DNA of 64,000 nt from Rozella allomycis CSF55 (taxonomy: Eukaryota). A program made the position numbers and the translations under genes. Under the pieces are notes generated by a model that had not been told where the DNA came from, did not search any database, and saw nothing but the letters and a program-made list of their open reading frames with translations. Positions within the stretch are counted from its first letter, which is position 1. Every line of letters begins with the position of its first letter. Positions 846 through 60,555 of this stretch are shown piece after piece. The stretch spans positions 1-64,000 of the forward strand of contig KE560678.1 in assembly GCA_000442015.1 (NCBI GenBank), written 5' to 3'.

Positions 846-3800
846 ATGGATTTGAGTTTATTGTTATCACCCAACAACCAAGAACGAGAGGCGAGTGAAA
901 AGCAGTTGGAGCAATTTATCAAGCAAGACGGCAACGGCGCGATGAAGAGTCTTGTAGAAACGATGGTAGTGTGTGGCGACAGTGCGGTAAATAAAGTTTG
1001 AAAATGTAAAAGATCCGGGGGCTAGCGGCAGTGTTGATAAGAAGATTTATAATCCAGCGCAAGATCAAGTGGAAGGAATTGAGTGAGGAGACGAGGGGTG
1101 GAGTGTTGGAGGGGTTTAACCATTCGCTTGAGAATGAGAGGGTTGGCGATGTGCAAAAGAAGGTGGCTGATAGTGCAGCGGAGGTGTATAGAAGTGTGAA
1201 GAAGAGTGGGGGTAAGTGTAGTTTGAGGGAGTGAGGTAGGTGAGTGGAGTGGGCTTGTTAATTTTCTTGGACAGGCGGCGTCGTCGAATGATGGGGTGAA
1301 GTTGGTGATAACGTTTAGGATGATATACTATGCACCGTCGTTGATTGATGGGACAGCTGTTGAGTTTATTAGTGGGTTGTTTGAGCATGGGATGATGAAT
1401 GCAGAGGCGAATGTGAGATTTGAGGCGTTGAAGAGTTATGTGGAGACGTTTGGGAGTGTGAGTACGAGGATGCGTAAAGGGATGTATGGACCGATGAAGA
1501 TTGTGGGTAGGGTGTTGGGCTCGTTGGTGGAAGAGGAGAGTATGTTGAATGAGAGTATGACGTGTTTGATAGAGTTTATACCAAAGTTTAGCAAGGCGAC
1601 CAAGATGATATATGGAGAGTTGTATAAGTTTGTAGTGAGTTTGTTGGGCAAGGAGGATGTTGATGATGAGGTGAAGCAGAGTGGGATGGAGATGATAGTG
1701 ACTATAGCTGAGAGTATTCCAGAAGTGATTGATAAGGATGAAGAGTTTTTGAGGGTAGTGATACCGAATGTGTTGAAGATGTTTTTGAGTGTGGAGGAGG
1801 GTGAGGAATGGTATAAGAGTGATAGTGATGATGATTTGAATGATGTTGGATCGTTTGCAGAGAGTGGGTTGGATAGATTAGCGTTGAGTTTGGATAGTAA
1901 TAAGATGATGGTAGTGTTGGGAGAGTATTTGAATGGGATGTTTGGTAGTAAAGTGTGGCAAGAGAGATATGGGGGTTTGATGACTATATTTTCTGTAGCC
2001 GAGGGCTGTCATGAGCTGATGGTTGAGAGATTTGAGGATGTGTTGAAGATGGTGTTGGTGTTGATTAATGATGAGAGTGCTAGGGTGAGATATGCAGTTG
2101 GGAGTGTGTTGGGACAATTGTCTAGTGATTTTAGTGAAAAGGCACAAGGGGAGTATTTTGGATTGATAGTTGAAGCGTTGATTCATTTGATGAGTGACAA
2201 GGTTGATAAAGTGAAGGGAAGGGGAGTTGAAGCGATGGTGAATTTGTTGGATGGAGTTGAAAAGAAGCAAGTTGTGAATTATAGTGATAGAATAATGAGT
2301 GTGATATTTGAGTTGATTAAAATAAATGATTATATTAAAACAGCGTGTTTGGATGTGATTGTTTCTATAGCTGAATCATTGAAAGAAGATTTTGTTAAAT
2401 ATTATGAGATTATTCCAATTTTGTATAATTTGTTTGATTCTGTAAAGATTGTTGAATATAAAGATAAAGAAGTTTGTGGCAAAATATTAAATTCAATTTC
2501 ATCAATCTATAACGAATGTGAAGGTGAAGGGGGTAAAAGGGGTATCAATGGGAGTGCAAGTGGAGTCAGTGTAGTATCTACTCAGCTATCTACTCCAACT
2601 CAACTATCTACTACTCCAACTACTACTTCACAGAATTATTTACCGTTGATTGAAAGATTGAAATTGTTGGATTCAGATGATTTGTTTAATTATAAAAGTT
2701 TAATTTGGGCTAAATTGTGTAATTTGATGGGAAAAGAAATAATAAATTATATTCAATTGATTATGAATGAATTGTTTATAAAGATTTCATTACAACCAGA
2801 ATTTGACATTCAAACAGAAGATTCTAATAATGAACTACAGGGGTATGAATACTTTAAACTTGATAAGAAGAAAATTGGAATTAAAACTAGTTTGTTGGAT
2901 GATAAAGAAACTTCAATAGATTTATTAAATTGTATCGCTAATGTTTTAGATTTAGAATTTCTTCCTTTTGTTAATGAATCAATCAAACTAATAATCCCTT
3001 GTTTCTCTTTTATCTACCACGATGGAGTTTTAATTTCTTCAACTAGATTTGTTTCAACGTTAATTAAAATTTTATCAAAATTAAATAATTCAAACTTTGA
3101 TTTAGAAATCTCAAATCTTTTAATTTCTTTAAATAATTCTTTAATAAACTCAATAAACAATGATTTCATTTGTTCTGCTCTAGATTCAATCTCTGAAAGT
3201 TTAGATCATTTACGAAATTTCAATAAATTTGATCTCTTACTTTCTCTATCTGACAATCTCTTCTCTACAAGCATTTCTCTACTAGAAGAATGTTTCGAAC
3301 GACAATGCAAAAATTTAAACTTTCAAAAAGATGAAGACGCTGAAAATATTCTCGATGAAGATTTTGCTACTGATGATGACATTGTCTACTCAATCTCTCG
3401 TCTCTTACATTCTCTATTAAAATTTGGAAATCAATTTGACTTTCATTTTGAATCTCGCATTCTTCCTTTTATTTCTAAATCTTTAAATGTCAATCTTCCA
3501 ATCTACAAACATTTCGCTGTTCTGGTCTTTGATGATATTATTGAATTCTTTGGTATTGACTATTCTACAAAATATCATTCTTTCATTTCTTCTCTCTTTT
3601 CTTTACCTTCTTCTAATGATCAATTACAGGGGGTGGATCCTGATTTGTTACAAGCCACATGCTATGGTATTGGTCTATTGGCTTCTAATCCATTCTACAA
3701 ATCTTTTTGTTCTTCTCTTCTTGCAACTTTATTTTTCATTTCTCAATCTCTATCTTCTTTAAATTCTTCTTCTTTAAACTCTTCTGCTTCTGACTACGAA

Positions 3801-4088
3801 GCTGCTAGAGATAACGCTGTTTCTGCTGCAGGCAAAATCATCAAACACTGCGGAGGTGACTTTATCGCTTGGTCTAGATTTCTTCCTCTAACTGCTGACG
3901 ATGAAGAGTTCTTGGATTGTTATTCTATTCTTTTGGATCTATTGCCTCAATCTCAACTTTTGGTTAACAACAATCTCGATCCTCACATTGCTCATGTGTT
4001 CAAACACATTCTAAACAATAATCCTTCTCAGGAGTTATTCAAAAAGGTGTCTGATTTTATTTCACTTCATTCAATCAATTTAAGCTAG
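846..4088 (+). CDS. Importin beta-3 / karyopherin (IPO5/Pse1/Kap121 family), 3 exons
   Basis: ATG 846; 26- and 28-nt GT-AG introns (~987-1012, ~1212-1239) join the N-terminus (LLSPNNQEREASE...IRGLAAVLIRR) to the 930-aa ORF with HEAT motifs ESGLDRLA, RVRYAVGSVLGQLSSDF, IGIKTSLLDDKE, ARDNAVSA. Confidence 0.9.
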
Positions 4089-4274
4089 ATTCAATAAAGA
4101 AGTATTTTAAATTATTAATGATTTTAAAGTTTTATTTTAAAAGTTTTAAGTTTTATGTAAAATAAGTATTTATTGAGCTATCGAAATAGATATGGTCGGT
4201 ACCTGGACTCTATTGAGGCAACATAGAGCCTATTATCCTTAGGTCACATATTTTCCCAGCCCAGTGATTTACTC

Positions 4275-6313: not shown

Positions 6314-7792
6314 ATGATATTTGATTATTTCAAAAAGAAATCAAAACGTTATTCGTATATACCGCTTGTGTCACTTGCTGATAATGACAAAACATATGGA
6401 TCATTGGAAAACCCGGAAAAACAAGACTTGAATAATAAGAGATACAAAACAAGAATAAGCCTAATTTATCAACTTTATCAGAAATCCTATTTAGTGGATG
6501 ATGATGATCCAAACAATAGTCTAGTTAACATTTCCCCCTGCAAAGAAATTAGAACTTTTTCAAGCTGGCTTGCATTGTTGTCGACGAATTCGTTAACGAG
6601 GATGTTCATCCTATACGTAATTCCTACTCTGTTCAGTTTGTGCTGGACAGCCTCATCTTCAATGGGACCATTTGGTTTCCTATTTCTCTATTTTGGTTTG
6701 TACATGGGAATATATTTGGCGTTCGTGACATACCTTTTTCAAATGTATTCACTGAATTGGTGGAAGGATAGCCTTGGAGCTCTCAAATCTAGCGCGTTAA
6801 TTATGTTCGTCACCTTATTCTTTGGATTGATGAGCATTATACTTCTGATCCATGAATACAGACTTGTTTGGATAATACTGGGTGCCTTTTCGATGATTGC
6901 TCCGATTGCTATTTCATGCCATACTGTGTGGATTGATCGCAATGGAAAATATAGAAACTCCATTACATCGGAAGCGGAGCTTGGACATACTTTTGAGTCC
7001 TGGATCCCAACTACCTATACTCAATTTCTTTGGTTCATAATTACATTAGTTATTTCTTATATTGGCTATTTATATTCTCAAGTCATTACTTATCATTATT
7101 TGACAGCTCCACCACAAAATAGTTTTCATCATTTGGCCGTCTCGACTATATTTATGCTTTTGCTTCAAGGACTGAGCGATATATCTGAAAGAATTATCAA
7201 AAACAGAATTGGCTGGAAACCCCTACAGGATATTTTCCAAGTTTACTTCAACACTTTTTATTTCATGTTTTACAGAACTCTTTTTGCCAAAGTTGGGTCA
7301 ATGTCAAGTATTATCTTAGTGCAATCTGCAAACGCAGCGATGTTTTTGGCGCTAAATATTTGGAGAAGCCAGAAATCATTCTATGATATACTTTTTAATT
7401 ATTTTGGATTAGATGTGACATATCAGCAGCATGTTAGGCATGTAGGCAGAAGAATATATCTTCGAATGTTGTCCGAAAACATATCCATTCTCCTGCTTAT
7501 TGGATGGATCGTTCTGTTCAAATTTTCGGATGTGGTTAAAGTTTACCCGTACTTTGACCAAAAAGCAGATAGATTCAATGATATCCTAATTGCAACGTTA
7601 ATCACGTGGCTAATTGAACGGATTTTGGGTTGGATTATTCGTCTTTATTTTCTTAACATGTTTAAGTACGACATGGTGCATGATGTAGTAAAGGACTTTA
7701 ATAGATATCCCGAATTTCTGCCCACAATAGTACTTTTAGTTATCCATATTTCCCAAGACATGCTTATGACGTTGATAAATCCAATAAAATAA
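6314..7792 (+). CDS. Multi-pass membrane protein of unknown function (intronless)
   Basis: Long ORF with about ten hydrophobic segments; first ATG at ~6314 (ORF track starts at GTG 6263). Confidence 0.7.
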   Translation: MIFDYFKKKSKRYSYIPLVSLADNDKTYGSLENPEKQDLNNKRYKTRISLIYQLYQKSYLVDDDDPNNSLVNISPCKEIRTFSSWLALLSTNSLTRMFILYVIPTLFSLCWTASSSMGPFGFLFLYFGLYMGIYLAFVTYLFQMYSLNWWKDSLGALKSSALIMFVTLFFGLMSIILLIHEYRLVWIILGAFSMIAPIAISCHTVWIDRNGKYRNSITSEAELGHTFESWIPTTYTQFLWFIITLVISYIGYLYSQVITYHYLTAPPQNSFHHLAVSTIFMLLLQGLSDISERIIKNRIGWKPLQDIFQVYFNTFYFMFYRTLFAKVGSMSSIILVQSANAAMFLALNIWRSQKSFYDILFNYFGLDVTYQQHVRHVGRRIYLRMLSENISILLLIGWIVLFKFSDVVKVYPYFDQKADRFNDILIATLITWLIERILGWIIRLYFLNMFKYDMVHDVVKDFNRYPEFLPTIVLLVIHISQDMLMTLINPIK

Positions 7793-9654: not shown

Positions 9655-10201
9655 CTATTTGCGATTAATATATTCGATTGCTTTTATGGCGATATTTCCA
9701 TATTCTTCCTGTATAGATCTAGTATTATAAATCTAATCAATTAATATAAACTTTTTTACATCTGTAAATAATCTAGAAAGAAATGGGGTGAATGGGAATT
9801 CTGGTAATACAAATTTCCCCTCACTTTGAAGGAAAGATTGCCCTTCCTTTGTTGAAAAGTCCATTAATGGCCTTTCAATATTGACCTTTTCAACGATCTC
9901 AAATTCCAGAGCTGCCGCATTTAAAATTGGCCTAGCATATTTTCTAAACAACCGTCTGTTTCTTCTTTTCTGGTCTGTATCACCGTCTCCAAAGTAAACA
10001 TCGATTGATTCAGATTTCTCGTAGTATTTTATCGGTAACATTGAATAATGTTTAACCTTATCTATCCGTTTTTATTTCAAATAATAGAAATACCTGCCCC
10101 GACTTTATTTTTTCTCTTAGGTAAGAATTATAATATGCGGGTCCTGTTATTCCTGTCACTCCAGCACAAACCAATAGTAAGCTTTTTGAAGGCTTCCACA
10201 T
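9655..10201 (-). CDS. Mitochondrial inner-membrane translocase Tim54/AGK-like small protein, 3 exons
   Basis: N-terminal TM segment (MWKPSKSLLLVCAG) and FRKYARPILNAAALEFEIVE motif typical of Tim54/AGK. Confidence 0.55.
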
Positions 10202-11797: not shown

Positions 11798-14088
11798 ATG
11801 CTCAATCCTGTGGCAATAGGCATTCTAAATGCTGCTAAATCACTTAACGTAAAAATTTATATTTGAATTCCTTGGAATGTCGATGATTTCTTTACGATGG
11901 ATTCTTGCCGTACGCTGGTAATCGAATTGGATCAAAATCCATATAAATTTTTCATCAGCACACTAACCGTACTAATTCGCAGTTAAATTGATAAGGCTTT
12001 GGACAGTCTCTCAAAAGATATTGAAAGTAACAGTGAAATACAACACGCTGCTATAAATCTACTGACTCTATTTGAAAAGGCTTATTATTACAATGGTTTA
12101 ATGGTAATCGATGGTATATCATTGAAATGTAGAATAATACCCTTTTTCTTCAAAGACTCCATGTTTTTCAAAAGTTCACCAAAATCTTAACAAGCTGGAA
12201 AGAGGCATCTATGGAACTTCCAGATATTTTTGATGATACAATCAGTTCTATATTTTCAATTCGATCTGTAGGGGACGCGATTTTAACAATGTTTACGGAC
12301 ACAACTGAATTTCTCTTGAGCAATAAAGATAAATTGTTGATTCAATTAACGGCGTTGCAAGTTTTGCAACTACAAGAGGTAAAAAAGTAAGTTTTATTTT
12401 AATAGGATTTGCTTGACAGACCATTTGTTGATCCCTTATACATGGATGAGGCTTATCTTATTGATGAATTAATGAAAAAAGAAGACGATTTCCATATAGA
12501 ACTATTTTCAAGCGTTTACAAGTGTTTAATGTATTGGTCATTGAAAGATTCAAATGCTAAGATTTACGTGCAACAGAAAATTGAATGGCTGTTGAATTTT
12601 GTTCTAAGTATGAGATTGATAATGAAACTTAGAGATAATCTTGGTGAATCAATGCCATCCTTTAGATGCTGTAAATTTGTCATTATAACAATCAATAAAA
12701 TGATAAATATTCTTCGCGACAATGCATTTTCTCTGATGTTTGATCTTTTGGTAAGGATCAAGGATATGATTCAAACATATTTAAGACAACAAAATAAAGT
12801 GGAAGACGTTAATATCGAAGATAATTATGATATTGTAGAGTTAAATAAAAACCTGGTGGAAATTGGTGATGAATGTGACATTGATATGGAGTGCCTTTCT
12901 AGTGTATTAACTTTGAAGGTTGACACTGATAAGACCATACAAAGGGGTTTCGCTTATGCAAACATGGACTACATTTGGCTGGAAGTGGATCATTCTCCTG
13001 ATAGACTCATATTACAATCCACTGATAAAGATAACATGGTATTATTTTAATTCCATTATGAAGAGACAATTGTCAAGAGTGCGTCGAAAGGTACACTTCA
13101 GATGTTTAAAACCGAACTACTCTGGCTTGGTAACGAAATTGTTTCTCACAAAGATGGAAACTCGTCAAGTGCAGTTAGTGACGAAAAGAAGGTTGCATTA
13201 AGATTAGAGTACGAGATTAAAACTAAGAAAATAGGTTTAAAAATATTCAGAATATTTATAGTGGCAAAATTGATGTCTTTAAAGGGAAATATCCATCAGA
13301 GCCATCATTACTCAGCGAAGAATCATTATCCGCTTCTAGCAAGTCAAGCCAAAAAGAAAAATTATATTTCATTGGAATTTATACAAAGAATAAAGTGTTT
13401 AGATTCTATCCATTTTTAGAAGAGGAAGTGGGTAGAATAGGTGCAATTTTCAATCATTTAACAGGAATGTCATTAATGAATGAAGCTGAGATCATTCATT
13501 CTATTTATGTAATGCTTATAGTTAAACATTATAAGACACAAAATATTATCAAATTAAGATACAAAGTGCTTGAAAAATTAATGAAAACACCTTCACCATA
13601 CATTGAAACAATGGTGGAATTACATAAAATTATAACTCAATTGTGTGACGAGTATAATCCCCAAGACATAATGCTGCTGGAAAAATTATTTCATAGTTGC
13701 AAAAGAGAAAATGAGGTCACCAAGGAGGCGTTTGAAGAACTTCGAAAACTTTGGCATGGAGCGAAATCTGAAGATGTTCAAATTAAAATCTTACTGACGA
13801 TTGATCGCTTGCTTACCCCAATTATTCTAAAGAGCAACGATCCTTTGACAATAACCATCTTCAATTGGCTCTGTCATCTGGAAGATACCCTTAGCCCTTA
13901 CAAAAGGTAATAAACATTAATGAGCATTTACAAGTCCAACAGCATTCAAAATGGCGATTGCATTGACCAAGAAAGCAAAAAGCCTCCAATTAGACAGACT
14001 TCCTGCTATTTTCGATCATGAAGTGCCAGTTCATTTCCAAAAGTTCAAGGAATTTTGTCATTATCAACATTCATTGTATAACATTTAA
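11798..14088 (+). CDS. Hypothetical multi-exon protein (helical, possible central PH-like region); start uncertain
   Basis: ORF fragments joined in frame by six 26-29 nt GT-AG introns; the first exon would need a 27-nt GT-GG intron (11849-11875), otherwise start at ATG 11896. Confidence 0.55.
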
Positions 14089-15726: not shown

Positions 15727-16841
15727 TTATTTCTTTGCTCTCATCATTGCAAAGTGAATCAAAGAGTCCATAAAGTCTGAAGGAGAAACTTTTGATAACC
15801 GCAATATCTATTGAAATATACATAATTTCTTACCTCTCCCGCTGAACTTGAAGAGTCAAATGTCATACCACAATTTGCATTTACTTCAAGAACGTATAAT
15901 TTCATTGTCGAATAATCCATACTATCGCTTCTTATGTCTACTCTGCCATAGCCATTTCCTTTCAAAGATAGATAAGCATTCTTAGCCAACTCCTTTAACC
16001 TATCCATTAAAAGTGGCGATGCTGGTTCGTATGTGTATAGCCTTTCTTTCTCATCGGGAGCGTTACCATTAAGATCATAACCTGCCCAATACCTATCAAA
16101 AGCTAAGATGCGTTGGTTTGCTTTCAAGTTCTTGTTGAATACCCTTTCAGCAACATCGTAGACAACAATTCCTTGAGTTGCATCACCAGAAACAAGTGCA
16201 GTAAACTCTCTGCCTTCCAAAAACTTTTCAATAAACACTCCTCCATTTGTCTGTGACAGTACCTGTTCCAGTTGACCTAAAGCTTCACACTGATTTGTCA
16301 CTACAGAATTATCACTGATACAGATGCTTGCATAAGAAATACTAGGTTTAATGAACATAGGATAGCTAATCGTATTTTCTAATTTACTTATTTTCGTCTT
16401 GGCTTCTTCAAGATTGTCGATTTCAACAAACGGCGACGTCGAGACTTTATTTTCCATCAATATCTTCTTCATAATAGGTTTAGAATTCGTTATATCAAAA
16501 AAGTAAGGATTAGCACCAGTATACGGCCATCCTTTCTGTTCCAAGTACGTTACAATTGAGATTCCAGGGTAGCCATCGGTCTCTGTCCCATCACAAAGAT
16601 TTAATACGACAAAATTCGACTGCTGTCCCAATTTTTGGAATATTTGATTGTAATTGTTTAATGTCACGGAATGCATTTGAATAGATGAATATCCCAATGA
16701 ATGCAACACTTTTACAATTTCGCTCACCCCTTCATTTTTTCCGTATTCATTGCTCAAGAGTATTTCATCTTTTGAAGTTTCAAGTAATTCTTCAGTTGGA
16801 CAACCGACTAAAATATGAATGCTGGGCAGCGAGCTAAGCAT
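15727..16841 (-). CDS. ATP-grasp ligase, D-alanine-D-alanine ligase-like, 2 exons
   Basis: VLNLCDG, PYTGA, YPMFIKP, FIEKFLEGREFT, GYGRVDIR, VLEVNANCG; 26-nt intron near the 3' end. Confidence 0.85.
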
Positions 16842-16905
16842 GATATCTAGGCTTAGCCAACACTTATTGATAGATGATCCGAATTTGGTGAAAAAATAAA
16901 TAAAT

Positions 16906-17966
16906 TTATTTGCCATTATAAATCATTTTTACATATTCCCAATAGTTAGAGCGTATTGGGTCAATTTCTGTAGCCAAACATTCAATTCGCTGTAAATAAC
17001 TAATTATTCTATTACTTTAAACAATTCTTCCTTGGACATTAAGTTATGCTGTCTGGAAGTTTCAACGATAAATGTAAGAAGAGGGATGGTCTTTGGAAAA
17101 GTCGCTTCCATTTCCAATGCAGTCTTCAATGCATTCTTGATTATTTCGCTATTTTCGGCAGATTTAAATTTGTCGCATATTCTGTTCAAAAAGCAATTAC
17201 AATTTTACCCTGCCAAATATACGTATGGAGCTTCGTTATTGGGAGCCAAGTTAATCTTCTTCCAAACATAAGCCAATTCATTCTCCCAATTGACACTCTC
17301 ATCCCTTGTCAAAATAAAAAATCTGTGATTCCAAGCAGAATTATTGCGAACGTCTAAATCTATCATTTTTTCCACAAAATCTAATTCTTGATCTGAGCTG
17401 ACATTAAAATTCTTCAATATCCATTGGCGATAAGACCAAGCGTGATAATTCTTGTTATCATCATTGAATGCGTGATCTGCCAAATGATTTAACTCTTCAA
17501 TAACATTTTCAATTTCTTTTTCATTTTCAAGACACCATTGCCTATGATACCTAGAAAATAGAAAAGATGATCAATACCAAATTTGATAATTCTTGGGATT
17601 GCTTTCAGACATTTTTCTTATCCAATCACATTCAATTTGTTTGTCCATTCCTAGTTTCACTAGAATATCCCTTCTGTATTGCCTGATTTCAAACTGTAAG
17701 TAGTTATTACCACACGGTATAGTTGGCAGCATTAAGCTGCAGCAAATAATCTGTTAATTTTAAAGCTCTTTCAGAGTACTCTTTAGCATTCATAATAGCT
17801 CTAAAGTAGTGTATTGCAGAACGGTCTTTGTTTCCAATGTAGATATATTACAGTTTGATGGATAGTTGATGTTTACAACTCTTGTAGTTGAATCAGGTAA
17901 AGGGTTTCGAACTATATCATCAAAAGTGCCTTGTGGAAAAGCATCTTCAAAGTCTTGAATGGTCAT
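16906..17966 (-). CDS. RAM2: Protein farnesyltransferase/geranylgeranyltransferase-I alpha subunit, 6 exons
   Basis: PFTA repeats NAANYTVWQYR, NPKNYQIWYHR, DNKNYHAWSYRQW, DVRNNSAWNHR, APNNEAPYVYL; five 26-28 nt introns. Confidence 0.93.
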
Positions 17967-36700: not shown

Positions 36701-38654
36701 TGAATCAAATGCATGCCATGTACCGTTTCCCGCAGTAAATATTCTCATGGTTTCTGCATGACATTCAATTTTTGTTAATTCAGCCGAATGAGCCTTTTAT
36801 ATCACTTAATATTCTAACTTACCTGTTGAACAATATTCCATTTCTTGTTCTTTTTATCCAAAATCAAAATTTGCCCCTCATTGCTGCCTCCAATTACCCA
36901 AAAACCATATTGCTTTATTTCTTCTTCATCTCTATTTTCTAATTCTTTTAAAAAATCACAATTCTTTTTTCCATCTAACCCACAAATCGATGTAGTTCCT
37001 TTGTGTTTTCAACATATTTTATACCTTCTAAATTCGTTATTCCCAAGATTCTGCATGGGCTTACATTGGTGTCATATACTATCATATCTCTATTGGTCAT
37101 AAATGCAAATATTAATTCTATGTAATTTCGTCAATTATTTTACCATTGTCATAGTCGTACAAGGCATCCATTATACTTGAGTTGCGCAATAAAGGCATAG
37201 CGATTACAATTGTTTGTCCATAATATTGGTTGAGTAACCTTACACTACCATCTTCAGTAACTACAACATATCTCGTTGGCTTTTTGAGACTTTTCGCTTC
37301 TTTAAGTGAAATCACTCTCGATCTATTCTTGATACTTTTATTCTTAATACTGAGTCAGTGAAAACGTATTTTGGAACTTGTTCAAATACCACATTGTCAC
37401 AGATTGCCTCGAATAAGTGTAAAAATAGTCTCTGAGGAACAATTTTAAATCTAAAACTTCAAACTGGGTGTCAATTCATATCTTAAACCTATAATATTCT
37501 TACTTGTATATGCATGTGTACTGATCCAAATTATACATCCTTATTGTTCTATCAGAAGAAGCAGACAACAAACATGGACCGTAACGCTTTTCCAGTGGAG
37601 TTATCGCATTGACCGAGCCTCTGTGATCTTGAAATTGATGGACTAAGGTCTTGTTCATGTTCCAGATCTTAATCTTGCCATCTTTCCCTCCGGTTATTAT
37701 ATAATCGAATGGATGGTAAACTGTGCAACAAGATATTGTTGTGTCATGGATTTGCTCAAACATGCCAATTCTATCGAAATTTATGTATGAAAATATCTAA
37801 GTTGTGCTAATCGTTAAATAACTTACCGCCAAAGATTGATCGTAAAGCACAAGAATCCTCTGATTCAGAATATCAAAATGAGTATTTGTTATCCATGCTT
37901 CCTTTTCGATTTCAATTACACGCTTTATCCTTAAATGGAATGTCAATCTTTGTATTTCATAATTTTTTCATACTTTTCATCACTGCAGAATTTGAATAAA
38001 GTTAAACTGCCAATTGAGCCTGTTAATAATTCATCTGTGGCGTCGATGAATTCCATACTTTCATTTTATACAAAGTGGATTACCAAACAACAGGTGAGCT
38101 CAATGGGATGTCTTTGAGAACATTTAAATTGACATCCATGATCTATAATAACAGCATTAAATTAATATAACTTTTAGGTGTACATCATTAGTATATGCTA
38201 CGTATACTCTAAACTTTTCAATGAAATGAATCAGGTTAATTCCAAAATCTTCTGCGATGTGTTTAATTCTATCATTATCTTGCCACATATTAATATAATG
38301 GCTGTCCACTGTTACGAAAATATCATTTATCGAATTATATACAGCTTGCTTCAAAGTCGGTCTGTGTAACACAATATTTCGAACACTCTGAAATCCATGA
38401 GGTATTGTCGTAAAAGAACTCATTGGAATCGTTGCAAATGATGAGTTTGAATTTTGGTGCTCGAATAACAGACTTTCTATCTTACTGACTGTTTCTGACC
38501 AAGAAGGAACGGCTCGGAAAGTCGACGACCTAAGTTGGGCAAAGGACTCTTTGGAAAAATTTCTCCGGAAGTTGCCATCAGTCTCATAGTCTTCACTAAT
38601 TTTTGTTTTTGGAATAATTGGAGCTGTTGGAATTGATTTCGAAAAATCTTTCAT
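33717..38654 (-). CDS. Large WD40-repeat protein with charged middle and C-terminal HEAT-like region (WDR97/WDR87-like; family tentative), about 15 introns
   Basis: ITGGKDGKIKIWN, LLSASSDRTIRMYNL, VTSSIDGLVKLWD...LIREIQFSEPVYSVCFAN; fragments joined in frame by 26-32 nt introns, one of them GT-TG. Confidence 0.75.
37477..37503 (-). other. Non-canonical GT-TG intron (27 nt) in the WD40 gene
   Basis: gtaagaatattataggtttaagatatg; AG alternatives at 15, 22 and 40 nt give immediate stops. Confidence 0.7.
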
Positions 38655-38701: not shown

Positions 38702-40088
38702 TCAATAGTTTATTGCATATTTTATGGCTTCATAAACTCTGAACTTATCGGGCAAATAGACGTTCTCAAATATTAGAGGAAATGGTGTATCCCAACCGCA
38801 AACTCTTTGTACTGGCGCTTCCAATCTTAAAAAACATTGTTCTTGGATTCTAGCAGCTATTTCTGCCCCAAATCCATTGGTAACTGGGGCTTCATGTGAG
38901 ACAACAAGTCTACCAGTCTTATTGACAGACTAGCCATTAAGATTATGAAACCTTACTTTGACAACTGTTTCTTCATCCCAAGGCAAAATGGAACGTAAAT
39001 CAATAAGTTCACATGAAACACCTAACTTCTCCTCTGCTATTTTCACCGCCTTTTCAAGAACATAAATTTGTGAACCATATCCAACAATAGTGATATCTTT
39101 TCCTTTTGTCAGAAAGATTGAATATTTTTACCTTCCTTCAAAACTTCAGCCTTGCCGATAGGGATCGTGAAGTCATCTTTTGGGACAAATTCAACTGTAA
39201 TAATTAATGCTTTACACTTATTACCCGCCGATCTATATAGCATTTTTGGTTCAAATACTAAAACTGGATTTGGATCACGTATGGCTGACAGTAATAATCC
39301 TTTAGCTTGTATTGGAGAACGCGGCATTACAATTTTCAGTCCCGGTGTGTGTGAAAAGTAAGCTTCGGGGCTTTGAGAATGATAGTGACCACCATGGCCC
39401 ACCCTTGCATTATATGTATATTTTCGTGTTTACGCTGAGCATGGAGCCCTTATTGTTAACCCTCCAACATTAAACATATTTCCTGATCGATAACGATATT
39501 TCGCAGCCTCATTTACGATCATTATTTGTAGTAAATGTTCATTACTTGATCAAATGCAGGGAATATGTAGTCCGCGAATTGAACTTCCGCTATGGCAGTC
39601 GATCCTACAGCAGCCATTCCTATTCCAAAACCCACAAGACCTTGCTCAGTGAGTGGCGAATTAAACACACGGTTCGAACCTATTTTAATTTTTAGCACTT
39701 TTTACCAAATTTATCCTTCAAATTGACAGAGCAACGAAAGACACCGCCAAATGCTACATCTTCTCCAAACACCACTTTTATACTTAACTTCTCGAATTTA
39801 CCTGCTTTTGAGTCTTTCTCAAGTGCTATTATCATTGCTTCATTGATTGCTTGGCACATATTGATTTTAGAAGAATTTCCAATAGTTATAGGCGAATATT
39901 TTTACTGCTTAGATTCTGGGATTTTAAATCAAAGTGTTCCGAAAGATCTACCTCTGATTGACAAAGAAAATTGGTTTGCAAATTATGAAGTTGCGTAGAT
40001 GCATGAAACTTTATATTCAAGAAGTTATTTGAATTACACGTCTCACATTAATGATTGATACCCTTAATCGGTTTAATGCTTTAATCAT
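38702..40088 (-). CDS. BCKDHB: Branched-chain alpha-keto acid dehydrogenase E1 beta subunit, 10 exons
   Basis: Arg-rich presequence, [76 protein letters not shown]. Confidence 0.96.
39520..39545 (-). other. Non-canonical GT-TG intron (26 nt) in BCKDHB
   Basis: PAFDQ|IVNEAAK restored exactly by removing gtaatgaacatttactacaaataatg. Confidence 0.85.
39880..39905 (-). other. Non-canonical GT-TG intron (26 nt) in BCKDHB
   Basis: gtaaaaatattcgcctataactattg; removal links the presequence frame to [12 protein letters not shown]. Confidence 0.65.
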
Positions 40089-43910: not shown

Positions 43911-44666
<756 letters not shown>

Positions 44667-55368: not shown

Positions 55369-57779
55369 ATGAATGTGTTTCACGAAGATGTAGTGTGTTT
55401 AAAGGATAAGATTGATGTAAAAGGTGTTGTTTCTGATACTATATTTGAAAATCAATCTATTCCTAAAGATTGTGTTGAAGTGTCATGGCATCAAGAACCT
55501 TATCCCGTGGAAATTATCGATAAGAAAGATTTGATAGTCACTAATAGATATCCTTTTTGTCTTATATTATTTTAAGATTGATTTTCCTTAATTTCAAATC
55601 GTTTTTACCGAGTGACATTGTTATGGATCCAAACGATCCTAGGAAGCTGCAGGGACTTGTAGTAAATACTAGAAGTGTATTGCATGTTCAAAACTGTTTT
55701 GATGATTCAAAGAAAGAATATGTTGTTGGAGATGATATGGTAGATATTGAAAAGGAATTTCTTGTTCAGGAAGGATCGTGGGTCAAATATAATGACTGGA
55801 TAGGAATTGTTATTGAAGTATGATAATGGTAAATCTAATAATTTAGGTGAAAACTGACTTTTATATTGCATTCAGCAATGGTGCAGTTTGCATACCAAAA
55901 GACTCAACAAAGTGTAGGCCGGCAAATGAAATAGACGAAGACTCTTATTGGTATGAAAGACATTTACCAGGACAAGTTATGATTTCAAAAAGATCTAATT
56001 TTGAAAAGGGAAAGTGGATTAAAGGATCATTTAAGAGTGCATCACATCATTGGAAAGGGGTACTAATGAAGACGGCCCATAAGAGTGTTTCGGTGATATG
56101 GAAAACAGTTAATCCAATTTTGCCCAATGATTCTGAAATTCTATCGTCTCCAAAAACTTTGTATGGCAATGAATTGAATAATTTGGAGGTATTTGACACA
56201 TTTTTATTATCTAAAATAAACATTGGATCAGTTGTGAAACTAAAGAAAGAAGCACTTGAAAACTTTAAAGATTTACCGATTGCCTGTAGCGATGAAAATT
56301 TCATGAACTATTGGATGGTTGTCGATCAAAAGACAACCGTAGATGTGCATTGGCAGGATGGGAAAATAGAAAATGAAATTTCTTCAGAGAAAATAATTCC
56401 AATTTTAGAGGCTGGTGAAACTGATTTGAGTGCCACTGAATTTGTTAAAAAGAATGAATCTGATAAATTAGGCATTTTGCAAAGTTTTGATCCTAATGAA
56501 AGAACTTGTACAGTAGGGTGGATCTCGAGTAACAGTGGAATGGTTGAAGGTGAATTGGAAGAATTAAGTATTTACGATGTTAAGGCAGACCCACAAGTTT
56601 CATTTTACATTATGAACATTGTGTTAAAAATAGATTCGATCCAAGACCCGAATAGCTGGGCTGGTGAAATAAGAAATATTTTGCCGAATGGATTAATTGA
56701 AGTTAGATGGACGACGGGGGTTACAGAAAATATTCCTTTCAAACATTTACATTTTGTTTATGATAGTTCTCAAGTTGATGACGAAGATCTTGAAGATATT
56801 TGTTATCCCCATGTAGATGACGATTGGATGACAATTGCAAGTGACGAGAATTCGGAAATAGATCAACAAGAAGAAAAAATATCTTTTGTAGATCTAGATC
56901 TAACTAAAAAGTTTAATATTTTGAGTATTAATGGAGATAACAAAGATTCTTTTAGCATTGATGAAAATGCACCATTAGATCATCTATTTTTACACAAAAC
57001 AATTCAATTTGCATCAAACGCAGCCAATGTGGCCATAAGGAAAGATTTTAAACTTTTAAAGGAATTACCTGAAAACATTTACGTTACAACTTTTGAAGAT
57101 AGAATAGATCTATTTAGGTCTATCATAATTGGATCCAAAGGTACCGTTTATGAATACGCAATGTTTCTATTTGATATTCAGCTTTCATCTAAACATCCAT
57201 TTGAACCTCCATCCGCGTATTACCATTGTTGGACTGATGGGCTAGGAAAATTAAATCCAAATCTCTATGAAAATGGAAATAGTAATTTTCATTTTTATTT
57301 TTTATCTAGTTTGTTTATCTCTACTTGGAACATGGGAAGGATTTGAAAAGGAAACTTGGTCTTCAAATTCTTCCATTTACCAATTATTACTTTCTCTTCA
57401 AGCTCTTGTTCTCGTCAGAGAACCTTACTACAATGAAGCGGGCTACACAAAATATCAGGGAACTGATGAAGGTCAAGTAGCTTCCATTCGATACTTGGAA
57501 AACGCTTTTCTGGGTTCCGTTAAATCAATTTTACATATCTTAAATCATCCACCATCTAATTATGAGGCTCTGGTTAAATTCTACTATATAGATTGCGGAA
57601 ATTTAGAAAAAGTCATTCAAAGGTGCGAAGCATTAGTACATTCCTCACAAGAACACGAAGAAAACATTTGTTCTTGGTATGATTCCACCAATCAAGATCA
57701 ATTCCCTCTTAAAAGAATTTCAAAAGGTGGCGCGAAATTGTTAACCCCCATCATAGAAACCTTGAAATCTTTTATTTAA
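55369..57779 (+). CDS. UBE2O: E2/E3 hybrid ubiquitin-conjugating enzyme UBE2O-like, 4 exons (first intron U12-type)
   Basis: NRSFLPSDIV, TTVDVHWQDG, RTCTVGW, FEDRIDLFRSIIIG, LNPNLYENG-ICLSLLGTW, LVLVREPYYNEAG. Confidence 0.92.
55548..55597 (+). other. Minor-spliceosome (U12-type) intron, 50 nt, AT-AA termini
   Basis: 5' ATATCCTTT; branch TTTTCCTTAAT at 55582-55592; removal fuses ORFs 55369 and 55557 to give VTNR|SFLPSDIV. Confidence 0.8.
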
Positions 57780-57966: not shown

Positions 57967-59154
57967 ATGGCAGCAACAGAGGAAAGGTTAGCATTCATCG
58001 CCGAGTGGTTTGATAAAAGTGCTGATTTAACAAGAGTTTTTCATTTTCTCTATTTTCCAACAGATCAGTCCATTGAACTCGTAAGTATAGTTCCAACAAA
58101 TGTTAGGTGGACGACAAGACAAAGAAAATATTCTTAAAGAGAGCGCCATATCCAAACATCACTATCGATCAGGTATATCTGGGCGCTACAATCACCGTCT
58201 ATTCAAGACCAATGACTTTGGTAAATTTTGGAGACGAACGGACGAGGAAAGTGTTCAAAACAGAATCATTGCAGTATAAAATATCTATATTATTGACAAT
58301 TAGTGAATTCTTGGTGATAGCCGCATCCAAAGATAATAAGAAATGTTTGGATGAAATTTACTCAATATGTCACACTAACAATACCCAAATCATTTCCATA
58401 GATCTAGTCAGCGCGTACATTCTCCCACAAAATTTGAGAGAAAAATTGCCTAGAGGAAATGTCATAGTAGCTAAATTAAAAGGGGATCCAAGAAATGTTT
58501 GTGAGAATGCAAACATAGTACTGCCAGACAGAGAACAATGTGAAAAAGTAATTCCTATTTATCTTATTTAAATGATAATTAATGAACTTGCTTCAGCAAA
58601 TTTTGATCTTCACGAGAATGCAAGTTTGTGCATCATCAAACCGCATTCCATGATTCAAGGTATTCATATACGTTGATTAAAATATGGTCGGTGCCATGAA
58701 ATAATTAAGGAAATCTCCGATGATTTCAATATATTGGCTATAAAAACTGTTCGATTGACTTTAGCAGAGGCCGAAGAATTTATGGAAGTTTATCAAAATG
58801 TTCTTCCTGAATATCATGTAAAAATTATGAAATTGCTTTAGTAGCTTTTAATAAACGAGCTCATCGCTGGAAATTGTGTGGCAATGTAGGTTTCTAGTCT
58901 GCAATTAATATAGTCAAGCACGTCCGTTAAATGGTGCTAATGCAGTGACATCATTACGAGAATATGCTGGTCCTTATGACCCTGAAATCGCCAAGCTAAT
59001 AAAACCAGATTCTCTACGCGCTAGATTTGGAAACGATAAAATTCAAAACGCAATTCATTGTACAGACTTGATTGATGATGCCCCGCTTGAGGTAAGTTGA
59101 TGCGTCGAGTATTTATAGATTCAATATATATTTCAAATAATAAAGGCCCAATAA
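57967..59154 (+). CDS. NME7: Nucleoside diphosphate kinase 7 (DM10 + NDK domains), 7 exons (two GT-TG introns)
   Basis: ERLAFIAEWFD, IFLKR, GATITVYSR, LCIIKPH, AEEFMEVYQNVLPEY, GPYDPEIAK, LRARFG, QNAIHCTDL. Confidence 0.92.
58548..58574 (+). other. Non-canonical GT-TG intron (27 nt) in NME7
   Basis: gtaattcctatttatcttatttaaatg; contains in-frame TAA; the next AG (49 nt) is out of frame. Confidence 0.7.
58660..58686 (+). other. Non-canonical GT-TG intron (27 nt) in NME7
   Basis: gtattcatatacgttgattaaaatatg; gives KPHSMIQG-RCHEIIKEI; the next AG (50 nt) frameshifts to a stop. Confidence 0.8.
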
Positions 59155-59166
59155 TCTGTGTATTTT

Positions 59167-60555
59167 TTATTTAAATAATGATTTTGTTGATCCTGATAGC
59201 TTTCGATTCAATCTATCCCAATGAAACGTGCAATTTTCAAAACTTAATTCTTCTAAACATGAAATGGAAAGTTCAAAAATATCACGATCATCTTGTGAAG
59301 CGAATTTCGCAGATTTTAACAAGTTTCTCTGAATCAGTACTACCTTTTTGAGTCTTTCTTTGTCAACATAATCTTTTTCTTTGTGGATGAAATCATTAAC
59401 ACTTGACTTGACAATGTAAATAACTCAAATTACTTGTATATCGCCGACCGTAGCTTGAATAGTTCCTTTAATTCGGTCACTCCTTTGTTTTAAGTTATTT
59501 TTAATGTTAATCCAGTCCCACACCTGCATGCTTTCGTTTTTCTTCAATTGGATATCCAGTAAACTTGGAATTTGTTCCAAGGGTGTTAGTTGTAATTGCT
59601 TTGAGCGATTGATGAGAGAATATATATCATCGATATCAGGATATTCCATCAAAATCTTTATTCCATCAATCCCTTGTTCCAAAACTATTAGTCAAAAAGC
59701 AATACCTTACGCCTTTCCTTGACGTTAAATAACATCGTTAGACAAATGTACGGAAGAATTTCAAAATTTGATACAAAAATTTCATTCCATAAAGGAATAA
59801 TCTGATCTAATCGAAACTCCCTCGAAAAAAGTAACCTAATCCAACGACAATTGCAATAACAAAACCAATCTTACATGAAGTAAACGCTAGGATCTAATTT
59901 TAGTGTTTCATGAATGTATTCATAATATTCTTCATCTATTTTTCGTAACAGGTGCTCATGCACTTTTTCTGACAACGTTGATAATCCTGCCCCCTTTAAT
60001 CAATTTTGAGAATCAAACATTACAAAATAGAATATCTTGACTTTTTCTATTAATTTCTCATAAATCTTATAAACATTATATGTGGAGGGATAGTTTGTTT
60101 GTTCTGAAAGCCAAAAGACCACCGCAAGTAGTTCATGCATTCCCTGGCGGTATTCAGTTCCCGTTAGTTTGTAATAACAGTAAAGTAATTTGGTCAATGA
60201 TTCAGCAACTCTTCTATCTCTAAAATAGGGATTGTCAGGAAAACTTGTATTATATTGCAGTTTTAAACATACATTCTGTCAACGTCCTTTTCAATTAGTT
60301 TTACAGTTTCTTCTTCCTTAAAATGTAAAGACCACGAACTCTTTGACATAAAATTAATTATTCTACTCCCTTCTTTAATGATAATGGATGATCTTGCTCC
60401 GTGTTTTCTTCTAATTTAATTTGTGAACTGATTTGAGTGAAAAAAACATTTTCTGGATCCTCAATAAGAATGTAATTGAAAATTTTCTGTTATAAAAGTG
60501 AGAACAATATTCTTACTGCCCAACCTTCAAAATAGCCTTGATAAAAAGTGGACAT
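59167..60555 (-). CDS. TBC-domain Rab GTPase-activating protein (TBC1D5/Gyp6-like), multi-exon
   Basis: IEKDVDR-FPDNPYF, EYRQGMHELLA, FIRWIRLLFSREF, LMEYP. Confidence 0.85.
59848..59874 (-). other. Non-canonical GT-TG intron (27 nt) in the TBC gene
   Basis: gtaagattggttttgttattgcaattg; gives YFI-RWIRLLFSREF. Confidence 0.8.

Follow-up and report, generated by a model that had tools for sequence, protein, structure and literature searches.

Candidate TG, CG and GG acceptors in very short introns of Rozella allomycis, with a 26-nucleotide case in BCKDHB

The BCKDHB gene of Rozella allomycis CSF55 contains a 26-nucleotide (nt) intron that starts with GTAA and ends in ATG, at 39545-39520 on the minus strand of the window, that is, the first 64,000 nt of contig KE560678.1 (contig C330 of assembly G000, whose 1059 contigs total 11.86 Mb). 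Few rules of splicing are as firm as the terminal AG. We propose, with a probability of roughly 65%, that the major spliceosome removes this intron with UG as its main acceptor, and that TG, CG and GG (collectively BG) act as fallback acceptors when no AG is in reach. Partial use of the AG downstream, beside UG, is likely. The GT-TG reading of the intron, put forward in the original prediction, was supported by its sequence, from which we infer the use of TG as the splice end.

The candidate TG-ending intron of BCKDHB

The insert at 39520-39545 lies in phase 0 between FDQ and IVNE, has no internal AG and is not a multiple of three, as had been predicted; its retention meets two stops at once. 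The GTAA donor matched other Rozella introns, where GTA is the rule. What the intron lacked was the terminal AG of the U2 type, with TG at 26 nt and the first AG at 38 nt. Splicing to that AG would close a 38-nt in-frame intron (39545-39508) and delete the I-V-N-E codons at 39508-39519 on the minus strand, the final two bases of which are the acceptor in both public Rozella models of the gene (P0001 and P0121). When TG was used, the upstream exon aligned with the human chain through mature Q109 and the next exon began at I110 with 13 identical residues, so that the two gene structures matched with no gap.

The claim that the next AG, 12 nt on, would remove IVNE from a conserved motif was borne out. 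Homologues were taken as the best 120 of 5014 matches minus P0001, and 12 of these 119 were without the motif. [IL]VNE followed the motif in 104 of the remaining 107, and three differed. V, N and E were invariant in the first homologue and in 76 other full-length ones (77 chosen of the 119). The chance that 12 random bases of local composition would encode [IL]VNE was p 1.7e-5.

Comparison of the intron position in other organisms, which had been suggested for this locus, pointed the same way. The human BCKDHB splice variant c.477+1G>A places a donor at this point in the available text of PMC11905697, and in that of PMC8460745 the I160 codon starts at c.478. Precursor and mature numbering are taken to differ by 50 residues, an offset that fits R168, R170, S171 and F175 and makes the human intron at c.477/478 correspond to the mature Q109/I110 junction. 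By this numbering the human intron and the Rozella intron sit at the identical junction, FDQ|IVNE. A metagenome contig (L104) is also interrupted at this junction, by a GT-AG intron of 37 nt. It came from a scan of 80 metagenome loci with best-segment identity of at most 73%, among which 70 had a DQ match, two had GT directly after a true FDQ, and only L104 had a full intron; no close relative of Rozella was found among the 80. The intron at 39545-39520 is probably an ancient one of the U2 type.

The gene itself occupies 38702-40088 on the minus strand and encodes 2-oxoisovalerate dehydrogenase E1 beta, the name being taken from P0001, the top homologue of part of the gene, annotated as Rozella allomycis BCKDHB. 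With both of its TG acceptors in use, 10 exons gave an unbroken protein of 378 amino acids, in keeping with the earlier claim that the rest of the gene is intact. The product has Transket_pyr and transketolase C domains, and its identity to the human chain continues across the FDQ/IVNE junction. All nine introns were 26-30 nt long, seven being GT-AG and two GT..TG, the latter both of 26 nt. The second GT..TG intron, at 39880-39905 (minus strand), was found as predicted, with A at position +23. It links presequence-like exons to the core, and its junction falls in a poorly conserved region that offers no homology anchor. There was no AG from 39903 to 39860, so no AG-only path leads from those exons to the core. 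The N-terminus is basic and free of acidic residues (five K/R and no D/E within 22 residues) and looks like a mitochondrial presequence. The GT-AG introns, all on the minus strand, lie at 40009-40037 (29 nt, in the presequence region, taken from the gene model described below), 39775-39801 (27 nt), 39680-39705 (26 nt), 39404-39433 (30 nt), 39195-39224 (30 nt), 39103-39131 (29 nt) and 38930-38956 (27 nt).

Both public models place the start Met after the second TG intron, have no presequence, and read in frame through the GT-AG intron at 39801-39775. They also skip IVNE, and so have the look of AG-bound, ab initio predictions rather than of evidence. Their choice nevertheless represents a competing explanation, in which the intron lost its own AG recently, the 38-nt form is spliced at the downstream AG, and the protein goes without IVNE, a loss of roughly one turn in a long helix. 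The 38-nt form keeps the reading frame, and a TAA at positions 31-33 could act as its branch site, which counts against our reading. Human TG acceptors, moreover, always have an AG partner in the available part of PMC2374985, and elsewhere in BCKDHB a TG is passed over for a nearby AG. Set against this, the four codons are still exact and V, N and E do not vary in the 77 aligned homologues; an intron of 38 nt is rare in Rozella; the public models that use this AG appear to be ab initio predictions; and most of the BG candidates described below have no in-frame AG nearby and would be left unexplained. AlphaFold2 did not clearly tell the two forms apart: it placed the junction inside a long helix, which covers 120-140 in the control, with a local predicted local distance difference test (pLDDT) score of 66 for the public IVNE-less model versus 71-76 for a homologue with IVNE, both being monomers modelled from 77-78 sequences. 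We regard the downstream AG as an improbable main acceptor.

Candidate BG-ending introns in 664 kb of the genome

A gene model was self-trained on 664 kb, of which 20,672 nt were N; this sequence was made up of the window plus 60 stretches taken from contig C861. When only AG acceptors were allowed, 1020 of 1106 introns were 26-32 nt long, 14 were shorter and two were 38 nt; Rozella introns have a hard length floor of 26 nt. For the control, an equal penalty was placed on six wrong acceptors and five wrong donors at four penalty settings; under each of them GT-TG outnumbered every other non-canonical class. At a penalty of -6, introns of 26-32 nt with both flanking exons of at least 60 nt (n=880) comprised 840 GT-AG, 7 GC-AG, 20 GT-BG (16 TG, 3 CG and 1 GG), 8 GT-AA/AT and 5 with a changed donor. 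BG made up 20 of the 28 introns in the BG and GT-AA/AT (AH) classes, compared to a share of 23% predicted from local base frequencies (p 8e-8). This run picked the 38-nt AG form for the intron at 39545 and missed its TG form, and therefore under-calls such TG cases. When BG alone was additionally allowed, at a penalty of -4, 36 of 905 introns ended in BG (28 TG, 4 CG and 4 GG), and two of the GT-AA/AT calls, which have an in-frame TG 3 nt earlier, were called TG. No in-frame AG was present at 26-45 nt in 28 of the 36, and 28 of the 36 had A at position 23 from the donor (A23). By this model, about 2-4% of Rozella introns would have non-AG (TG, CG or GG) ends.

Four BG introns were anchored by homology: those of BCKDHB and TGS1, the second in NDK7, which has loose edges, and one in MTG1 on contig C861. 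The TGS1 intron (44188-44214, plus strand, GT..TG, 27 nt) is a 9-residue insert with a stop compared to human TGS1, and VIAI would be lost if the in-frame AG at 39 nt were taken. NDK7 has two GT..TG introns of 27 nt on the plus strand, each with an in-frame stop. The first (58548-58574) lies outside the homology-aligned stretch and has its next in-frame AG at 69 nt; the second (58660-58686) corresponds to a gap of about eight residues with inexact edges and has no in-frame AG up to 74 nt. The original prediction had called the BCKDHB intron the cleanest case and best single test locus. This did not hold, since an in-frame AG, preceded by the branch-like TAA, lies 12 nt away, and 28 of the 36 candidates, the second NDK7 intron for example, have none at 26-45 nt. 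The gene model also called a GT..TG candidate of 27 nt in a WD40 gene (37477-37503, minus strand), with an in-frame stop and the next in-frame AG at 72 nt, and a GT..CG (30 nt) or GT..TG (27 nt) candidate at 59845-59874 (minus strand) in a TBC-domain-like gene, a label given by eye.

The GT..CG insert of MTG1 contains no stop and fills a gap of 9-10 residues compared to human, mouse-like and Bacillus structures. Two separately deposited proteins, on contigs of different length, read through it identically and have Pro at the acceptor codon. The non-AG end is thus present in more than one public record, which bears on the DNA and not on splicing. It is also relevant to the possibility that the assembly is wrong or alleles were collapsed at BCKDHB, the real DNA or the other allele carrying AG at 39521-39520. 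Local differences between records do exist, since P0121 and P0001 differ at one BCKDHB residue and, in the second exon of Prp18 (L002), G000 encodes SF where public record P0122 has ND, a 5-nt inversion within a 4-bp hairpin. G000 may therefore hold local artefacts. Errors should, however, strike the four invariant bases alike, yet the class changed at -2 led at every penalty; the CG end of MTG1 recurs in separately deposited proteins; and P0121, on another contig, likewise omits IVNE, a point of little weight as the model may have been copied. Hairpin inversion as a source of TG was rejected for the target, where no inversion restores AG; it could do so at one of seven window candidates. An assembly or allelic origin of the TG is, on balance, somewhat less probable than the downstream AG.

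Raw counts of AG and TG by distance from GTAA-type donors, made without a gene model, showed an AG peak near 26-28 nt and no TG peak, in data that are too noisy. AG occurred within 26-32 nt in 4 of 36 BG introns versus 60 of 869 AG introns (p 0.31), a null result. Inside 35 long introns, in-frame and out-of-frame BG (14/70 versus 15/140) did not differ significantly (p 0.09). BG introns had stronger donors, and purine flanks, but these features were set aside as evidence because the gene model selects for them. An initial hand-set gene model, which over-predicts on the antisense strand and served to list candidates only, gave two GT..GG candidates, at 10066-10093 (minus strand) in a Tim54-like gene and at 11849-11875 (plus strand) in an unnamed gene; the stricter model did not confirm them. 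Three GT-AA calls (L038:1222-1247, L039:425-453 and L041:4313-4341) are 1-2 bases away from an AG or sit within long runs of A/T, and could reflect minor indel errors of the assembly.

Intron geometry, the splicing machinery and a proposed mechanism

A23 was found in 83, 70, 63, 72 and 73% of introns of 26, 27, 28, 29 and 30 nt respectively, against a background of 33%. Overall it was present in 684 of 959 canonical introns, in 304 of the 459 that were 28-32 nt long (p 8e-47), and in all seven window BG candidates tested. Its context is Y-T-R-A-Y-like, and the branch consensus is weak. The gene model, whose acceptor matrix is fixed to the 3' end, could not have created this peak. Three bases beyond A23 give the 26-nt floor. 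We take A23 as the putative branch point; in the BCKDHB intron it is the A at 39523 (minus strand), 3 nt ahead of the intron end. AG from position 26 on was depleted upstream of the used AG (3/345 versus 104/2351, p 5e-4), which fits a first-AG rule. BG from position 26 on was not depleted there (25/345 versus 159/2351), and the BCKDHB intron at 39433-39404 passes over TG at 26 and uses AG at 30. Because AG is depleted ahead of the used AG and BG is not, BG behaves as a fallback acceptor, which disfavours a purely length-ruled, AG-blind model. Among the 35 longer AG calls, A23 was present in 11 of 11 with an in-frame BG at 26-31 versus 9 of 24 others (post hoc p 4e-4, or 7e-4 minus one paralogue). 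This suggests that true long introns shift the branch point rather than reach far.

U2, U5, U6, Prp8, Prp18, Slu7, Fyv6, SDE2 and U2AF35, the last recognised by eye, were found in G000. FAM32A was not among the proteins detected, a negative to which no weight is attached. The RNAs carry what we take to be the branch-pairing box (U2), the ACAGAGA box (U6) and loop I (U5). The Prp8 alpha-finger is nearly identical to the human one, with the equivalents of F1509 and Q1522 (yeast Q1594) kept. The Prp18 loop reads VMGPINLNER in Rozella versus VTS-VGIHAR in yeast, with the near-invariant His changed to Asn and a one-residue insertion. When the best 149 of 1344 other matches were compared, 148 had the WP anchor; 146 of these had His nine or ten places after WP, and 117 showed the strict form G[VI]TxVGIHxR. 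The two homologues without His look mis-predicted. The contrast is conservative, because the matches compared are those most like the Rozella protein. The altered loop was present in both public Rozella Prp18 records, and in a word-based search with the Prp18 exon only Rozella itself matched. Short duplicated pieces around N gaps, resembling assembly stutter, were seen at the Prp8 locus (L008, about 3270-3540 and 6500-6560).

In yeast, loss of Prp18 or of its loop activates BG and branch-proximal 3' sites in the available sections of PMC10711555, where the protein is also presented as a ruler of the minimum branch-to-3' distance. A human structure has H289 in bridging contact with the docked 3' site's backbone, as given in the accessible part of 10.64898/2026.08.05.741260. 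From its H-x-R spacing, H289 would be the loop His lost in Rozella.

The mechanism that we propose begins with the reading of a GUA(A) donor, from which introns would be measured at their 5' end, with the A about 23 nt in serving as the presumed branch point. The spliceosome would take the first AG found between position 26 and about 32 and, where there is none in that reach, would dock a BG, mostly UG. The last G of the intron would still pair with its first G, and the A at -2 would be checked only loosely. Pairing of the last with the first intron G is established splicing chemistry. Two reasons for the loose check may be suggested: in the shortest introns a branch A 3-9 nt from the end would be too near for the usual contact between branch A and A(-2), and the Prp18 loop, which checks the 3' site, has diverged and may be the cause. 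In BCKDHB, cleavage after the terminal UG would give ...FDQ-IVNEAAK.... A bolder and more tentative proposition, to which we give somewhat less than even odds, is that the wild-type Rozella major spliceosome constitutively removes several hundred introns without AG, by a 23-nt donor ruler, an acceptor as little as 3 nt past the branch A, and a remodelled Prp18 loop that docks any BG, leaving A(-2) outside the 3' splice signal.

Besides the TAA of the target, several points weigh against these proposals. Most of the 36 BG calls come from the gene model alone, with four anchored by homology, one of them loosely. In 26-nt introns A23 coincides with the -4 base, which itself prefers purines. The behaviour of AG and BG ahead of used acceptors, and the TG passed over at 39433-39404, count against free use of BG and are shared ground with the downstream-AG explanation. 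The link between the Prp18 loop and BG is a one-species correlation, and G000 departs locally from another public record at least once. Finally, the yeast Prp8 mutant Q1594A failed to rescue a UUG reporter in the available portion of PMC12707134, and the Gln is intact in Rozella.

The fallback behaviour of BG would also be expected if these introns were slightly deleterious mutations of recent origin in a parasite whose population is small, poorly spliced by an ordinary spliceosome, that is, leaky splicing with no special mechanism; very short microsporidian introns are inefficiently spliced (about 25%, as cited in the available text of PMC13644364). BG ends nevertheless occur in an estimated 2-4% of introns in conserved genes, two each in BCKDHB and NDK7, and nearly all are changes at -2 only, which tolerated use fits better. 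The Prp18 loop is also changed. Such decay seems unlikely, slightly more so than an assembly error.

The minor (U12) spliceosome, which tolerates odd ends, was considered as well, given that full-length, sub-threshold U12-like and U6atac-like genes are present in G000 and that the window has a U12-like intron. The target, however, lacks both the RTATCCTT donor and the CCTTRAY branch site, and it resembles the U2 class in donor, length and A23. In a U12-motif scan of the 664 kb, the intron at 39545-39520 was not among the 126 donor-like matches. Removal by the minor spliceosome is very improbable. The U6atac-like and U12-like genes (L166:1501-1607 and L167:1501-1633) keep their key boxes. The U12-like intron of the window is a probable 50-nt U12-type intron in UBE2O (55548-55597, plus strand), with a ATATCCTT donor, a CCTTAAT branch site and an AA end; its removal joins VTNR to SFLPSD in frame (length and frame determined by hand). 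Further U12-like introns were seen on contig C861 (L045, L063, L079 and L080). These genes and introns together suggest a divergent minor spliceosome in Rozella.

Two unrelated features of the window were recorded. The minus strand at 15759-16922 encodes an ATP-grasp protein that matches the D-Ala-D-Ala ligase C-terminal family, a surprising find for a eukaryote. In the importin-5 gene (about 1200-4090, plus strand), GC skew passes from strongly positive to negative along the length, the coding sequence being G-rich and then C-rich.

Comparison with known systems and implications

The proposed use of BG in Rozella was compared with known departures from the AG rule, as far as the available parts of the cited reports describe them. 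Human TG 3' sites make up about 0.02% of 3' sites, are alternative, need an AG neighbour and include no constitutive ones (Szafranski 2007, PMC2374985). Like the Rozella introns, they are GT..TG ends of U2-type introns that keep G at -1; in Rozella, by contrast, BG was called in about 2-4% of introns, most without an in-frame AG in reach. The BCKDHB target could be a TG-AG tandem of the human kind, with its in-frame AG 12 nt on, whereas 28 of the 36 candidates have no such AG at 26-45 nt. Yeast lacking Prp18 resembles Rozella in using the same BG class, with UG prominent, at branch-proximal sites and in connection with the Prp18 loop (PMC10711555). There, however, BG use is a mutant error on top of normal AG use, while in Rozella BG appears to be a needed junction in the wild type, with Prp18 present and its loop remodelled. 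The alpha-finger mutation Q1594A of Prp8 relaxes the -2 position and helps UCG and GAG, not UUG (PMC12707134); unlike that mutant, Rozella retains the Gln, as well as the Phe that lies 13 residues earlier.

Ultra-short introns are known from other lineages. Those of myxobolids and Dicyema have a shifting branch-like A that lies further from AG in longer introns (PMC13644364), and those of Stentor have a near-fixed branch A, sixth from the end, in an organism where Prp18 and Slu7 were undetected (PMC9505925). Like Rozella introns, they are under 30 nt, with a GTA donor, a near-fixed branch-like A and a canonical U2. Unlike the Rozella BG introns, they are described with AG ends only in the available passages of both reports, and the Rozella A23 is fourth from the end in 26-nt introns compared to sixth in Stentor.

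A literature search whose reach left out most subscription papers and preprint supplements returned no description of non-AG acceptors in Rozella. The main text of a fungal splice-site survey, in the part available, had no mention of Rozella or GT-TG (10.1101/616565), the accessible text of PMC8476143 mentioned only intron density and an RPL7 paralogue for Rozella, and no passage on non-canonical ends was found in that of PMC13685798.

Use of BG acceptors by U2-type splicing in Rozella is a proposed reading that the sequence supports well. Public Rozella gene models, that of BCKDHB included, are probably wrong at BG sites, which affects comparative work on this sister group of fungi. If the reading is true, a species that requires acceptors other than AG in a few percent of introns would reveal which contacts in splicing's second step are dispensable.
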